Source: an uncultured Candidatus Saccharibacteria bacterium (GTDB lineage Bacteria; Patescibacteriota; Saccharimonadia; Saccharimonadales; UBA7683). Taken from it: 64,000 nucleotides of DNA. The position numbers were made by a program, and so were the translations under genes. Location: positions 14,839 to 78,838 of the forward strand of contig CAYNKQ010000003.1 of assembly GCA_964397855.1 (NCBI GenBank). Reading direction: 5' to 3'. Below, piece by piece: positions 5,329 through 9,678 of this stretch; positions within the stretch are counted from its first letter, which is position 1, and each line of letters opens with the position of its first letter. Under the pieces are notes generated by a model. The model saw nothing but the letters and a program-made list of their open reading frames with translations, ran no database searches and was not told where the DNA came from.

Positions 5329-5369
5329 ATCTTAGTTCTTAGAGCTTAGATCTTAGATCTTAGAGAAAA

Positions 5370-5392
5370 CGAGTCGGAAGACTCGTTTTTTT
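5370..5392 (+). terminator. Rho-independent terminator after nrdJ
   Basis: CGAGTC-GGAA-GACTCG stem-loop (5370-5385) followed by a T7 run (5386-5392). Confidence 0.75.
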
Positions 5393-5509
5393 GTTCTCTG
5401 TGGTTTGTCGCTCACGGCTCGGTTGGGAGTTTAGTGATTGTGGTCGCGGGGTGACTTAACTCTTCCAAGAGCTAAGATCTGCGACCTCCTTCTGGTATAC
5501 TAGAATGTA

Positions 5510-5773
5510 ATGAAAGCGGTTATTCTTTACAAACCAAACACTGAGCTTGAAAGCTCTGTTAACGAATATGTTCGAGAATTTCACCGGCAGACGAATAGAG
5601 ATATTGAATTGATTGATGCGGACAGTATTCAGGGTATTGAGACAGCCAAGCTTTACGATATTATGCAATTTCCCGCAGTACTCGTGTTTCGTAACGATGG
5701 TCAATTCATTCAGTCATGGATAGATCGTGAAAAATGGCCAACAATCTCAGAACTTAGTTTTTATAATCAATAA
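5510..5773 (+). CDS. Small hypothetical protein with a possible thioredoxin-like fold and no Cys motif
   Basis: 87-aa ORF with an alternating beta/alpha-like pattern. It has no CxxC, so it is not a canonical NrdH or thioredoxin. Confidence 0.4.
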   Translation: MKAVILYKPNTELESSVNEYVREFHRQTNRDIELIDADSIQGIETAKLYDIMQFPAVLVFRNDGQFIQSWIDREKWPTISELSFYNQ

Positions 5774-6000
5774 AGCATGGTCAGTTCCCTGTCTCCGTCA
5801 TCCTTAACTAGATTCAGGATCCAATCAATAACAATCATCTTCCACACTCCTGCCATCCACCGCCGCGGATCCAGTCATCAAGCATTCAGCTTCCCATCTC
5901 TACGCCCCAAGCTTCTCCAACCCTCCATTTCACCAAACAGAAGACTCCGGTATTCGGGTTTTGGGTGAATGGGTGGGGAAGTTGACTCGTGGGGCGAGGA
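5774..6000. repeat. Dispersed element, copy A (paralogous to 17868-18122)
   Basis: Shares conserved ends with copy B. The 5' end ATGGTCAGTTCCCTGTCTCCGTCATCC matches ATGGTCAATCTCCTGTCTCCATCATCC. The internal CTACGCCCCAAGCTTCTCC matches CCACGCCCCAAGCCTCTTTCC. The 3' end GGGTGAATGGGTGGGGAAGTTGACTCGTGGGGCGAGG matches GGTTGAATGGGTGGGGAAGCTGACTTGCGGGGCGAAGG. Confidence 0.65.
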
Positions 6001-6054
6001 TTACAATAGCTTGCACTTTGATCTGGAATCTACTACTATAAGCACATATCCGTT

Positions 6055-6235
6055 TGAGTGGCTATCACCCACGAGGAAGAGAAAGAACGGCACTTGCTCA
6101 GTAGAATCTCTCGGAATCGGCACGTAAGATCGAACAACTAAGCGCTAGAAGAGTGAGAACCACTTCTTTTGGAAGTCAGATGGTACCATCCTGGAAACGG
6201 GATTCTGACAGACAGAAGAAGTGGTTTTTGTTTAC
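6055..6235 (+). promoter_or_regulatory. T-box-like tRNA-sensing leader upstream of the GNAT-ileS operon
   Basis: The canonical antiterminator architecture is present. Helix A1 is GTCAGA (6175-6180) paired with TCTGAC (6204-6209). The 7-nt bulge is TGGTACC (6181-6187). Helix A2 is ATCC (6188-6191) paired with GGAT (6200-6203). This is enclosed by an 11-bp outer helix (6158-6168 with 6216-6226) followed by a T-run. Upstream lie an AGAGA-rich segment and AGTAGAATC / GGAATC containing AUC (Ile) codons. Confidence 0.65.
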
Positions 6236-6292
6236 TGTTTTTTGTCATCCTGAGCAACGTCGAAGGATCTAGTAACTAAGAGTAAGGTAGCT

Positions 6293-6823
6293 ATGAAAGA
6301 CCAGCCAACACAACAATTCACTATAGAAAAAATGCAACCAGAAGATTTTGTGGCTGCTAACGAAGTGCGTCTTCAATCTTGGCTTGATACGTATGTGAAC
6401 GATCAGTTTGACGTGACCCGCGACTGGGTAGAATCTCGTAACGAAACTCAGCGCAGCTTGAAGGCGGTTGAGCACAGGCGTCAGCTTATGGAGGATGCAG
6501 TATCCGCGCAGTGGGTTGCCAAAGATAGCTCTGGGGTTGTAATTGGCGTCACGGGTCCGTACGTGACAAGTAGCGGCGTACAACGCGTTGGCTCACTGTA
6601 CGTTGATAGAAAGTACCATGGCTGTGGAGTAGGCGCAGCGCTAATACAGAAAGTTATTGACTGGCACGATCCAAGTAAGCCGATTGAAATTTATGTTGTT
6701 AGCTACAACGAAAGAGCAAAAGCCTTTTACAGAAAATGGGGCTTTGAAGAAATTCCAAATTCCGAAAAACTGTTCGCAGATAAGATTCCAGAAATAAGAA
6801 TGATACGAAAGGCACAGATATGA
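6293..6823 (+). CDS. GNAT-family N-acetyltransferase
   Basis: 176 aa with an acetyl-CoA-binding motif A-like segment (VDRKYHGCGVGAALIQ) and a C-terminal AKAFYRKWGFEE. Its stop overlaps the ileS start (ATGA). Confidence 0.8.
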   Translation: MKDQPTQQFTIEKMQPEDFVAANEVRLQSWLDTYVNDQFDVTRDWVESRNETQRSLKAVEHRRQLMEDAVSAQWVAKDSSGVVIGVTGPYVTSSGVQRVGSLYVDRKYHGCGVGAALIQKVIDWHDPSKPIEIYVVSYNERAKAFYRKWGFEEIPNSEKLFADKIPEIRMIRKAQI

Positions 6824-9678
6824 AATTTAAAGCAAATAGCAGAAGAAGAGCACTAGAATACGAAAAGGATCTTGTTAAGAAATGGAAAAAGAATAAGACT
6901 TTTGAAAAGTCAGTACAAATGCGTCCGAAAGAAAATAGTTACGTATTTTACGATGGACCTCCGTTTATTTCAGGTTCACCGCACCACGGAACACTTCTGA
7001 GTTCGATAGTGAAAGATGTTGTTCCTCGTTATCAAACCATGAAAGGTAAAAGAGTAGAGCGCGTTTGGGGCTGGGATTGCCATGGCTTGCCAGCGGAAAG
7101 ATTCACTGAGAAGAAACTCGGTATTCACTCACGCCAAGAAGTTATAGAATACGGCATAGAAAAATATATTAACGCAACTCGCGAAAATATGATCCAAACC
7201 AGTAGCGAGTGGGAAGACGTAGTCGATAGAATTGGTCGCTGGGTTGAATTTAAGGGCGCCTACAAAACCATGGACAAAGACTACATGGAAAGTATCTGGT
7301 GGGCATTCAAAACTTTGTACGAAAAAGGCAAAATCTACGAAGGTGAAAAAGTACTCATGTACTGTATTTTGGACGGCACTCCGCTTTCTAAGGCCGAAGT
7401 CACTATGGATAGCGGTGCATATCAGGACGTTACCGATCCAAGCGTGTATGCAAAGTTTAAACTAGCCGGATCGGACGCAAGCCTGCTAGTTTGGACGACT
7501 GTCCCGTGGACATTGCTAGCAAATACTGGATTAGCAGTTGATAAAAAGGCTACATATGTTGAAGCCAAAGTAGGAAGTGAAACCTATATTACAGCTAAAG
7601 ACCTTCTAGAAGAGAGTCTTAAAAACGAAAAAGGTGAACTACCCAGCTATACGGTTGTCCGAGAATTCAAAGGGAAAGAACTGGTTGGTCAAAAATATGA
7701 ACCTTTCTACAAGGACTGGGGTAAAAAAGCTCACTATATTCATCATGCCGATTTTGTAAGTACTGAAGAAGGTACTGGAGTAGTGTCGCAAGCTCCTGCG
7801 TATGGTGAAGAAGATTTTGAACTTGCCAAGCAAAAAGACTTTCCAGTTATCTCGGTTATCGACAATAACGGTGTATTAACTGAGAGTGACTTTAAGGGTC
7901 GACAAGTGTGGGAGTGCAACAAAGAGTATGCAAAAGCTTTGCTAGAGCGAGATAAAGTGTACAGAATTCATTACTATCGTCACAGCTATCCGCACTGTCA
8001 TCGATGCGGCACTAAGTTAATCTACCGAGCTCATCCAAGCTGGTTTATGGACATAGAGGGCCAGCGGGAAAAGATGCTTGAAAAAAATGGCAATGTTGAA
8101 TGGTTCCCACGTCATGTAAAAAATGGTCGTTTTGCTAAGACTGTTGAAACTGCACCAGATTGGAATATTTCTCGTGATCGATTCTGGGCAACCGCAATGC
8201 CTGTTTGGAAGGGCACTGACAAAGACGGCAATGAGCATGTTAAAGTTATCGGTAGCTATGCTGAGCTTAAAGAGCTCTCGGGCAAAGAGCTCGATGATTA
8301 TCACCGTCCATGGGTGGACGACATTACGTTTGAAATTGACGGTGTAACATACACACGAATCGACAAAGTCATGGATAGCTGGTTTGAGGCTGGAAGCATG
8401 CCGTTTGCGCAGTTCCATTATCCATTTGAGAATAAAGAAAAGTTTGAAGCTAATTTTCCAGGTGACTTCATAGTCGAGTACATCGGTCAGGTTCGTGCCT
8501 GGTTTTACTATATGCACGCAATGAGCGTCGCACTATTTGGCGAAAATTCGTTTAAAAATGTGATCGTAACTGGTAACGTAGCTGGCAATGATGGTCGTAA
8601 GATGAGTAAAAGCTACGGTAATTACACCGATCCAAATGAACTTATGGACAAGTTTTCGGCAGATAGCCTAAGGTTCTTACTGGCCTCAAGTCCGCTTCTC
8701 AACGGCGAAGATTTTACTTTGCAAGACAAAGAGGTCGGTGACATTGCCCGCAAACTGAGTATGGTTTGGAATATGTACGACTTCTTTACAATGTACGCCG
8801 AAGTTGATGGATGGGAGTGGGATGGTAATCACGAAGACCCAACTCAGCTTTGCAAGAACCCGCTTGATACCTGGATCATCAGTCGTGTGCATCAATTAAC
8901 TCAAGAAGTTGAAAAACATATGGATGTATATGATATTCCAAATGCAATGAAACCAGTTCTACCATTCATAGAAGACGCTTCAAACTGGTACGTGCGCCGT
9001 TCTCGACGTCGCTTCTGGAAAAGTGAAGATGATAGTGATAAGAACGAAGCCTATAGGACGCTCCATTACATTCTGGTACAGCTCAGTATGGTCATAGCTC
9101 CGTTTACGCCATTTTTGGCGGAAGAACTCTATCAAAAACTCACTGGTGGTGAATCAGTTCACCTGCTTGATTGGCCAGAGGTTGGCCATGTGAATGAGCT
9201 GTTGATAAGTGATATGACCAAGCTCCGTGAATACGTAAATGAAGGTCTGAGTATACGCGCCCAGAACAAACGTAAGGTTCGCCAGCCACTCGCTTCAGTG
9301 ACAATCCCTGAAAACGGTACGGTATTCGATTTCGATGAAATTTTACAAGAAGAACTGAATGTAAAAGCAGTACAAGTTGGTGAATTTGCCCTAGACCTTG
9401 AACTAACTGATCACCTAAAACGTGAAGGACTTATGCGCGAAGTCATCCGCTTTGTTCAAAATGCCCGCAAAGACGCTGGTCTTAATGTTGATGATCGCAT
9501 ATATCTTTCACTCACAACGAATAATTTGGATCTGAAAAAGGCTATCGAAGAACACATGCAGACTATTGCAAATGAAACCCTCGCTACTAAATCTGGTGAA
9601 GCGACAGACGCCTATAATGTAACCGTTAAAGTTGAGGGCGAGGAGCTGAGCATCTCACTCAAGAAGGCAGAGAGCTAA
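6820..9678 (+). CDS. ileS: Isoleucyl-tRNA synthetase
   Basis: 952 aa class I aaRS with a HIGH-type motif (PHHGT), KMSKS, and a CP1 editing-domain-sized insertion. Confidence 0.95.
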   Translation: MKFKANSRRRALEYEKDLVKKWKKNKTFEKSVQMRPKENSYVFYDGPPFISGSPHHGTLLSSIVKDVVPRYQTMKGKRVERVWGWDCHGLPAERFTEKKLGIHSRQEVIEYGIEKYINATRENMIQTSSEWEDVVDRIGRWVEFKGAYKTMDKDYMESIWWAFKTLYEKGKIYEGEKVLMYCILDGTPLSKAEVTMDSGAYQDVTDPSVYAKFKLAGSDASLLVWTTVPWTLLANTGLAVDKKATYVEAKVGSETYITAKDLLEESLKNEKGELPSYTVVREFKGKELVGQKYEPFYKDWGKKAHYIHHADFVSTEEGTGVVSQAPAYGEEDFELAKQKDFPVISVIDNNGVLTESDFKGRQVWECNKEYAKALLERDKVYRIHYYRHSYPHCHRCGTKLIYRAHPSWFMDIEGQREKMLEKNGNVEWFPRHVKNGRFAKTVETAPDWNISRDRFWATAMPVWKGTDKDGNEHVKVIGSYAELKELSGKELDDYHRPWVDDITFEIDGVTYTRIDKVMDSWFEAGSMPFAQFHYPFENKEKFEANFPGDFIVEYIGQVRAWFYYMHAMSVALFGENSFKNVIVTGNVAGNDGRKMSKSYGNYTDPNELMDKFSADSLRFLLASSPLLNGEDFTLQDKEVGDIARKLSMVWNMYDFFTMYAEVDGWEWDGNHEDPTQLCKNPLDTWIISRVHQLTQEVEKHMDVYDIPNAMKPVLPFIEDASNWYVRRSRRRFWKSEDDSDKNEAYRTLHYILVQLSMVIAPFTPFLAEELYQKLTGGESVHLLDWPEVGHVNELLISDMTKLREYVNEGLSIRAQNKRKVRQPLASVTIPENGTVFDFDEILQEELNVKAVQVGEFALDLELTDHLKREGLMREVIRFVQNARKDAGLNVDDRIYLSLTTNNLDLKKAIEEHMQTIANETLATKSGEATDAYNVTVKVEGEELSISLKKAES

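Follow-up and report, generated by a model that had tools for sequence, protein, structure and literature searches.

The 64,000 nt stretch of DNA considered here, referred to throughout as the window, derives from an uncultured Candidatus Saccharibacteria (TM7) bacterium (contig CAYNKQ010000003.1). A leader of ~185 nt (6046-6234, + strand) is located between the gene for a class II ribonucleotide reductase and a pair of genes encoding a GNAT acetyltransferase and isoleucyl-tRNA synthetase (GNAT-ileS); the parts of it described below are all on this strand. Comparison of related sequences, together with modelling of the folds they can adopt, makes it likely that this leader is a tRNA-Ile-responsive T-box riboswitch controlling transcription of the Saccharibacteria GNAT-ileS operon.

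The leader is widespread in this lineage. Using the IleS protein of the window as a query, 80 genome loci (L001-L080) were recovered at 68-77% identity, nearly all labelled Saccharibacteria or Saccharimonadales, and a homologous leader precedes ileS in 74 of them, as found by nhmmer with positions 6040-6245 as the query. A covariance model of the 3' domain, R1, detects a single copy in each of 78 out of 81 sources, the window among them (6140-6228, 70.7 bits), and the three sources that it misses have 2, 14 and 547 nt of available sequence upstream of ileS. No second T-box copy was found by R1 in the window or the 80 loci, its only further matches being weak reverse-strand echoes of the palindromic hairpin. 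Metagenomes were scanned with a pattern free of both Stem I and the terminator, which returned 120 stretches: 76 have ileS downstream on the same strand, encoding proteins 40-88% identical to the window's IleS, 13 extend too little in that direction for a decision and 31 show no match to IleS there. The 17 of these 31 that were read are all coding or low-complexity sequence lacking the T-box helices, and revealed no other codon or regulated gene. Every confirmed copy of the leader is upstream of ileS or an ileS operon.

The 3' half of the leader contains the elements with which T-boxes read the 3' end of tRNA. The signature of this discriminator is 5'-RRRxG-Stem III-AA-3', followed by helix A1, a 7 nt bulge of sequence UGGNACC and helix A2 (PMC7583486). 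In the window, the purine string AAGCG (6140-6144) is directly 5' of Stem III (6145-6172), in which CUAGAAGAG (6145-6153) pairs with UUCUUUUGG (6164-6172) around a loop at 6154-6163. An AA linker (6173-6174) then joins Stem III to A1, formed by GUCAGA (6175-6180) and UCUGAC (6204-6209), which is followed by the bulge UGGUACC (6181-6187) and by A2, consisting of AUCCUG (6188-6193) and CGGGAU (6198-6203) closed by a GAAA loop. The complete arrangement is present in 67 of 75 sequences, mostly with 7-10 contiguous Stem III pairs, and with insertions, up to ~45 nt long, restricted to the loop of Stem III (for example in L027, L039 and L046).

Individual parts of this module are strongly conserved. 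Before Stem III, 67 of 75 sequences have [AG]AGNG, a motif whose positions A2, G3 and G5 are invariant (alignment A2), as are the columns G127, A128 and A129, corresponding to 6172-6174. Among 63 aligned sequences, no variation is seen in GAUGG, in the bulge A and C or in the UC belonging to the 3' strand of A1. The original prediction for this locus had staked its claim on conservation of the bulge and of the A1 and A2 helices in relatives, and this is what is observed: all 75 bulges conform to UGGNANC (UGGUACC 62, UGGUAAC 8, UGGUAUC 2, UGGCACC 2 and UGGAACC 1), while in a covariance-model alignment of 76 sequences A1 is 100% paired, with four covarying and two invariant pairs, and A2 is 90% paired, with all six pairs covarying. 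Stem III is 95% paired in the same alignment, seven of its nine pairs having changed on both sides, and the three helices taken together have 95% of cells paired. The fourth base of the bulge, U6184 in the window, would fit the A73 that is usual for bacterial tRNA-Ile; it is U in 72 of the 75 leaders, C in two (L071 and L080) and A in one (L068).

A1, the bulge and A2 are enclosed by a further helix followed by a U-run, and all of these elements were found where the original prediction had placed them. The 11 bp outer helix that it described, AACCACUUCUU (6158-6168) with AAGAAGUGGUU (6216-6226), is present and extends to 14 bp, with AACCACUUCUUUUG (6158-6171) paired to CAGAAGAAGUGGUU (6213-6226); likewise the U-run occupies 6225-6229 and is followed by GUUU. 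In the resulting terminator conformer (6158-6234), the outer helix continues A1 beyond a small internal loop and is succeeded at once by the U-run, which begins at 6225 within UUUUUGUUU. The minimum free energy (MFE) of 6140-6229 is -39.1 kcal/mol, against a mean of -19.4 kcal/mol for shuffled sequences (z = -7.15), and none of 200 shuffles is as low. The nested helices have 96% of cells paired, compared with 39-55% when the partner strand is slid by 1-3 columns, and compensatory changes have occurred at 19 of their 27 pairs, including most pairs of the outer helix. RNAalifold predicts the nested fold de novo. In all 75 sequences, a helix of 13-14 bp is abutted by 6-8 U, counted over 9 nt beginning where the U-run does.

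Bases 6164-6171 are common to the outer helix and the 3' arm of Stem III, and these two helices therefore exclude each other, whereas A1 and A2 are part of both folds. When the RNA ends after A1, the MFE structure consists of Stem III with A1 and A2 in the window and in 67 of 67 relatives. At full length, 65 of 67 relatives and 67 of 76 metagenome loci have the outer helix in place of Stem III and retain A1, the metagenome loci including a distant IleS clade in which the sequences of the helices are quite different. The terminator is favoured by 12.4 ± 3.5 kcal/mol on average, the two states of the window having predicted energies of -24.4 and -39.1 kcal/mol. Furthermore, substitutions in the shared strand, for example in L029, L007 and L036, are accompanied by covarying changes in both of its partners, the Stem III 5' arm and the 3' strand of the terminator; in L029, for instance, the sequences are CUACGGA.. 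/ ..UUCGUAG / CUACGAAGG... The original prediction had also proposed that GAAGAGUG (6148-6155) might sequester the 5' strand of the outer helix. The pairing that it envisaged is essentially right, but the sequence is the 5' arm of the T-box Stem III.

The 5' half of the leader is organised around a very small Stem I. Four base pairs between GUGG (6058-6061) and CCAC (6069-6072) display a 7 nt apical loop, CUAUCAC (6062-6068), containing the specifier AUC (6064-6066) followed by a purine, A6067; AUC is an isoleucine codon, complementary to the anticodon GAU. In relatives, 99% of Stem I cells are paired and all four pairs covary, and Stem I is also predicted by RNAalifold. None of 63 aligned genome sequences departs from AUC, nor does any of 74 metagenome sequences, which were retrieved without use of Stem I and in which the specifier columns read AUCA (70) or AUCG (4); a purine follows the codon in 61 of 64 genome sequences and in all 74 from metagenomes. 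Tandem GA dinucleotides flank the hairpin at 6056-6057 and 6073-6074; of 64 relatives, 45 have GA 5' of the stem and 53 have it 3' of the stem.

Below these, UCC (6049-6051) can pair with GGA (6075-6077) to form a base resembling a kink-turn (K-turn). That such a helix is universal can be rejected, as just 47% of cells are paired at the two pairs tested (6050-6051 with 6075-6076). Instead, the base of Stem I takes two forms: a simple K-turn-like bulge, as in the window (UCC-GUUU-GA...GA-GGA), or a 4-6 bp hairpin that replaces the bulge while keeping a flanking helix (AUGC with GCA), and so produces a three-way junction (for example in L006, L035, L055, L039 and L009). Script-based calls in 64 relatives assign the helix alone to 24, the hairpin alone to 23, both to 12 and neither to five. 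A promoter-like -10 element shifts from ~18 to ~32 nt upstream in step with the form of the Stem I base. Insertions are also found between Stem I and Stem II (L025, L021, L016 and L041).

Stem II follows, with a lower helix of AGAGA (6078-6082) and UCUCU (6107-6111), an S-turn internal loop in which AAGAAC (6083-6088) is opposite CAGUAGAA (6099-6106), and an upper helix of GGC (6089-6091) and GCU (6096-6098). The lower helix has 91% of cells paired and compensatory changes at all five pairs, with 39 different combinations of arms, and the upper helix has 86% of cells paired. Next comes an H-type pseudoknot composed of IIA, CG (6112-6113) with CG (6123-6124), and IIB, UCGG (6117-6120) with UCGA (6130-6133); IIA is near-invariant (47 of 48 at each pair), and IIB has 81% of cells paired and compensatory changes at all four pairs. 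The pseudoknot spans 22 nt, similar to the compact T-box pseudoknot of 21 nt (PMC7583486). Over the 5' domain as a whole, 86% of cells are paired and 18 of 20 pairs show compensatory changes, and RNAalifold gives a concordant structure. These features account for the two GAAUC pentamers that the original prediction had correctly located at 6104-6108 and 6114-6118 and put forward as possible specifiers. The first straddles the junction between the S-turn loop and a covarying Stem II strand, whose initial UC is found in only 12 of 64 relatives, and the second falls in the IIA loop and an IIB strand, so that neither can be retained in this role.

The corresponding leader of Nocardia farcinica ileS, T99 (GGCGACGAUCCGGCCAUCACCGGGGAGCCUUCGGAAGAACGGCGCC...GGCGGCUCAGUAGAACCGAACGGGUGAGCCCCGUCACAGCUCG), has the same order of parts. 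Its Stem I layout, GGC-GAC-GA-UCCGG-CCAUCA-CCGGG-GA-GCC, is matched by that of the window, the S-turn loop sequences AAGAAC and CAGUAGAA are identical in the two leaders and the pseudoknot opens with CG in both. A sequence-only hidden Markov model (HMM) of the Saccharibacteria 5' domain aligns collinearly with T99 (19.9 bits, E = 2e-4 for 1 Mb). Judged by its sequence, the 5' half of the leader (6049-6133) is a class II, or ultrashort Stem I, decoding module, because the order of its parts, the S-turn loops and the HMM alignment agree with T99. The central proposal of the original prediction, a T-box-like ileS leader with its antiterminator nested in a terminator-like hairpin, is thus borne out by conservation, covariation and collinearity with an ileS T-box of solved structure.

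From this architecture, we infer that the leader binds tRNA, that bound tRNA turns the operon on, and that the output is transcription termination. AUC and the following A, in the apical loop of the 4 bp Stem I and buttressed by the S-turn and IIA/B pseudoknot, would capture the GAU anticodon of tRNA-Ile, and UGGU would pair with the ACCA 3' end of this tRNA when uncharged. Stem III and A1/A2 would fold first during transcription. The strand emerging later (6213-6226) is complementary to the Stem III loop and 3' arm (6158-6171) rather than to the 3' halves of A1 and A2; were tRNA absent or charged, Stem III would not be held on A1, and the new strand could displace its 5' arm. The 14 bp helix produced in this way, extending A1 and abutting the U-run, would act as an intrinsic terminator and keep ileS off. 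Conversely, with uncharged tRNA-Ile bound, Stem III would remain stacked on A1, latched by the flanking purines, such that the terminator could not nucleate and RNA polymerase would read through the U-run, turning ileS on.

This scheme makes Stem III the moving part: its being docked on A1 or invaded by the terminator strand would report aminoacylation, while A1, A2 and the bulge never unfold. We lean towards this assignment with some reserve. A switch at Stem III is supported by the finding that antiterminators lacking it have no appreciable tRNA binding (PMC7583486), and by its movement in the T-box of Mycobacterium tuberculosis ileS (PMC12647780), where uncharged tRNA maintains the stacking of Stem III on the lower antisequestrator helix and a mimic of charged tRNA causes the linker to undock and Stem III to move away. 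For M. tuberculosis, the linker GAG, which contains G96, is described as the linchpin (PMC12647780).

One feature by which T-boxes are recognised, a terminator made from the 3' strands of A1 and A2, is not found here, as the terminator uses the loop and 3' arm of Stem III. We treat this as marking a variant rather than as grounds for exclusion, because the expression platform already varies among accepted T-boxes, being either transcriptional or translational. The long Stem I of the Rfam T-box model RF00230, with its specifier internal loop, AG bulge and distal loop, is replaced by the 4 bp hairpin with its 7 nt loop.

Several observations weigh against a T-box acting on transcription, beginning with those concerning the Rfam T-box family, RF00230. 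No match to RF00230 was found in the window, either at the gathering score across its whole length or at E ≤ 10 in 5850-6350, an outcome that the original prediction had named as sufficient for its own rejection; this criterion is too strict, because RF00230 was built on T-boxes with a long Stem I. No Rfam family matches anywhere in the window at gathering score, the permissive scan of 5850-6350 gave only chance miRNA-like matches to the hairpin, and none of 16 relatives contains RF00230 at gathering score. The best RF00230 score, 27.2 bits in L125 (E = 3e-4 on 401 nt), is far below the gathering score of 93. The model nevertheless aligns L125 end to end, placing Stem IIA/F-box, AAGNG, Stem III, AA, A1, UGGUACC and A2 with high posterior probability, and its Stem I region with low posterior probability and many non-pairs. 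The helix here named Stem III can be equated with the T-box Stem III because RF00230 aligns its L125 equivalent to its own Stem III.

Further reservations concern Stem III itself, the tRNA and the known range of T-boxes. The 76-sequence covariance-model alignment was fitted to the very structure under test; an independent count anchored on register gives 93% pairing for Stem III, against 47-62% when slid. The helix is purine/pyrimidine-rich, giving a high background of pairing (84% in shuffles), and four divergent relatives (L075, L076, L015 and L034) have no clear Stem III. The G.U pair at the base of A2, by which T-boxes sense the aminoacyl group sterically, occurs in only 36 of 76 sequences, the window having A-U (A6188-U6203); the remaining basal pairs are U-A (15), A-U (11 in all), G-C (9), C-G (1) and others (4). 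No tRNA gene, hence no tRNA-Ile, was found in the window (ARAGORN) or in 60 related loci. Finally, reviews hold that transcriptional T-boxes generally need a long Stem I for fast capture of tRNA, and the Saccharibacteria leader has none.

Among alternative explanations, a T-box with translational or dual output, in which the switch alters access to the Shine-Dalgarno (SD) sequence of the first gene as it does in Actinobacteria, has the precedent that all characterised ultrashort-Stem-I ileS T-boxes act on translation. The SD is only 4-21 nt (median 12) beyond the U-run, which pairs with the A/G-rich SD region in some predicted folds, and more than half of the SD is paired in 11 of 32 folds of the terminator state and in 17 of 32 with Stem III enforced. 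These pairings, however, are weak, locus-specific hairpins between U-runs and A-runs, if anything commoner in the presumed ON state; no conserved pairing hides the SD in the folds of relatives in either conformer, and the SD-complementary strand CUUCUUUU is base-paired in both. In addition, the window and half of its relatives have an unrelated first gene and SD while the hairpin and U-run are unchanged, and 6-8 U abut a 13-14 bp helix in all 75 sequences. We therefore regard a translational or dual output as unlikely, and in these models transcription termination is favoured because there is no conserved SD-hiding pairing and the hairpin and U-run are the same whether they precede ileS or an unrelated inserted gene. 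There is a similarly small chance that tRNA blocks the terminator sterically or kinetically, with the acceptor arm on the bulge preventing closure of the outer helix and Stem III a mere folding intermediate. Such a role would suit the persistence of the bulge and A1/A2 in both conformers, as well as the stacking of the tRNA acceptor stem on A1 in solved complexes (PMC7583486, PMC12647780). It leaves unexplained why RRRxG and AA are as conserved as the bulge, given that these purines function only with Stem III formed (PMC7583486), and why Stem III covaries independently of the terminator strand; moreover, the outer helix draws on bases of Stem III, so that the terminator state lacks a complete discriminator.

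It is very improbable that the leader does not sense tRNA at all, being instead a constitutive attenuator, a stability or processing element, or a tRNA-mimicking operator bound by IleRS, with the T-box motifs as relics. The lack of any Rfam match in the window would be in keeping with this, and some aminoacyl-tRNA synthetase genes, such as thrS in E. coli, are autoregulated via tRNA-like operators. Relics, however, would not hold AUC invariant in 137 sequences, nor would UGGNACC, RRRxG, AA and the S-turn be near-invariant across IleS clades that share just 40-46% identity. The loop of Stem I displays the codon AUC and not the anticodon GAU, making it a complement of tRNA-Ile rather than a mimic, and two mutually exclusive, covarying folds indicate a switch. 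We accordingly retain the tRNA-Ile-responsive T-box with a Stem III-competing terminator as the preferred reading.

The genes around the leader are arranged as follows. The last position of the class II ribonucleotide reductase gene is 5328, and a terminator of its own follows at 5363-5392. The ~700 nt between it and the leader (5329-6045) contain open reading frames (ORFs) of 87 aa (5510-5773) and 63 aa (5777-5968), neither of which has a Pfam or NCBIfam match. A promoter-like sequence, suggested by its resemblance to the consensus type, consists of TTGCAC (6011-6016) and TACTAT (6034-6039) on the + strand, separated by a 17 nt spacer; it is below the threshold of a consensus scan, and in most of 64 relatives the spacing is consistent, with Stem I beginning 16-20 or 28-36 nt after the end of a TTGnnn-17-TAnnnT match. 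The transcript is predicted to start at ~6046, the point at which conservation begins. Downstream, on the same strand, are the GNAT acetyltransferase gene (6293-6823), with Pfam GNAT domains, and ileS (6820-9678), with the Pfam domains tRNA-synt_1, Anticodon_1 and DUF5915; they overlap by the ATGA at 6820-6823, and the IleS scores 787 bits against NCBIfam ileS TIGR00392 (cut-off 621).

What separates the leader from ileS varies between relatives. It is immediately upstream of ileS in 37 of 74, and the other 37 have one small, variable ORF between; across L001-L080 these intervening ORFs encode 50-265 aa and are of several unrelated kinds. Being inserted between the T-box terminator and ileS, they are presumably under tRNA-Ile control. 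A GNAT homologue, recognisable by ...QSWLDTYVN..., holds the position before ileS in about nine relatives. The association recurs elsewhere: P0067 is a 1162 aa Saccharibacteria-type IleS with fused GNAT domains, and NCBIfam contains a family 'ileS_w_GNAT' (NF040702).

The IleS proteins form two clades with a mutual identity of 40-46%, both having the C-terminal DUF5915 domain. Four loci compared with the window (L141, L119, L125 and L154) all have the same T-box leader and nested terminator. The possibility that the low-identity group represents another phylum was rejected, the one locus checked, L125, being labelled Candidatus Saccharimonadales; the source records of a few second-clade proteins give Candidatus Dormibacteraeota instead, perhaps as a result of binning errors. 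In the metagenome leaders L101 and L144, an insertion of ~95 nt forms a long hairpin in the A2 loop.

The leader belongs to a known mechanistic class, and is not categorically new. Its novelty lies in the coupling of an ultrashort Stem I to an intrinsic terminator, against what reviews lead one to expect, and in a terminator that encloses the antiterminator and competes with Stem III. A literature search found no paper linking T-boxes to Saccharibacteria, Patescibacteria, the Candidate Phyla Radiation (CPR) or TM7, and no description of a terminator wired to compete with Stem III. If the proposal is correct, ultrashort-Stem-I decoding, so far known only from translational switches, acts at the level of transcription, and a conserved regulator of ileS across Saccharibacteria constitutes the first T-box lineage described in CPR/Patescibacteria. 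T-boxes are a model system for one structured RNA reading another, and their range would thereby extend to ultra-small epibiotic CPR bacteria, which have very few recognisable regulators.

There would also be practical consequences. RF00230, as represented in Rfam 15, misses the Saccharibacteria element, and the alignments made here could seed a covariance model annotating the leader in hundreds of CPR genomes. The nested terminator would provide a natural experiment on whether the response to tRNA charging resides in Stem III and the purine linker, as has been proposed (PMC12647780), with Stem III docking becoming readable by a simple termination assay. Similarly, the fourth base of the bulge and the closing pair of A2 vary, and a tRNA-Ile discriminator base that varied in step would be direct comparative evidence for pairing with tRNA.

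The closest known relatives of the leader are the class II ileS T-boxes catalogued in TBDB, in which the specifier loop is the hairpin loop of Stem I. Ultrashort-Stem-I ileS T-boxes have been described in Nocardia farcinica, M. tuberculosis and M. smegmatis, with structures deposited as PDB 6UFM and 6UFG (PMC7583486). Like these actinobacterial leaders, that of Saccharibacteria precedes a type 2 IleS with DUF5915, shows AUC and A in the apical loop of a short Stem I placed on a K-turn (whose base helix is seen in only a subset of relatives), lacks a distal platform for the tRNA elbow, and has an RAG-type purine linker before Stem III, followed by A1, UGGNACC and A2. The two differ in the dimensions of Stem I, which has 4 bp and a 7 nt loop in the window but 5 bp and a 6 nt loop in T99, and above all in the expression platform. 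In the actinobacterial members, a sequestrator hides the SD and unfolds the antisequestrator (PMC7583486, PMC12647780), whereas in Saccharibacteria a helix tailed by a U-run engages the Stem III 3' arm, with A1 and A2 left undisturbed. The hosts are also of different phyla, the genomes of Saccharibacteria (CPR) being AT-richer than those of Actinobacteria, at ~45% GC, and the TBDB translational_ILE (class II) model has been applied only to Actinobacteria and to RF00230 hits.

With the canonical transcriptional T-boxes, such as those of Bacillus subtilis tyrS and glyQS, the leader shares recognition of tRNA at two sites, through specifier-anticodon and UGGN-NCCA pairing, the same succession of RRRxG, Stem III, AA, A1, 7 nt bulge and A2, and a stabler intrinsic terminator that competes with the tRNA-stabilised fold. 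It departs from them in its Stem I, which is without the specifier internal loop, AG bulge and distal loop. In canonical leaders the A1 and A2 3' strands become the 5' strand of the terminator, so that antiterminator and terminator are mutually exclusive (PMC7583486); by contrast, the strand recruited by the Saccharibacteria terminator is the 3' arm of Stem III, and A1 and A2 lie within the hairpin.

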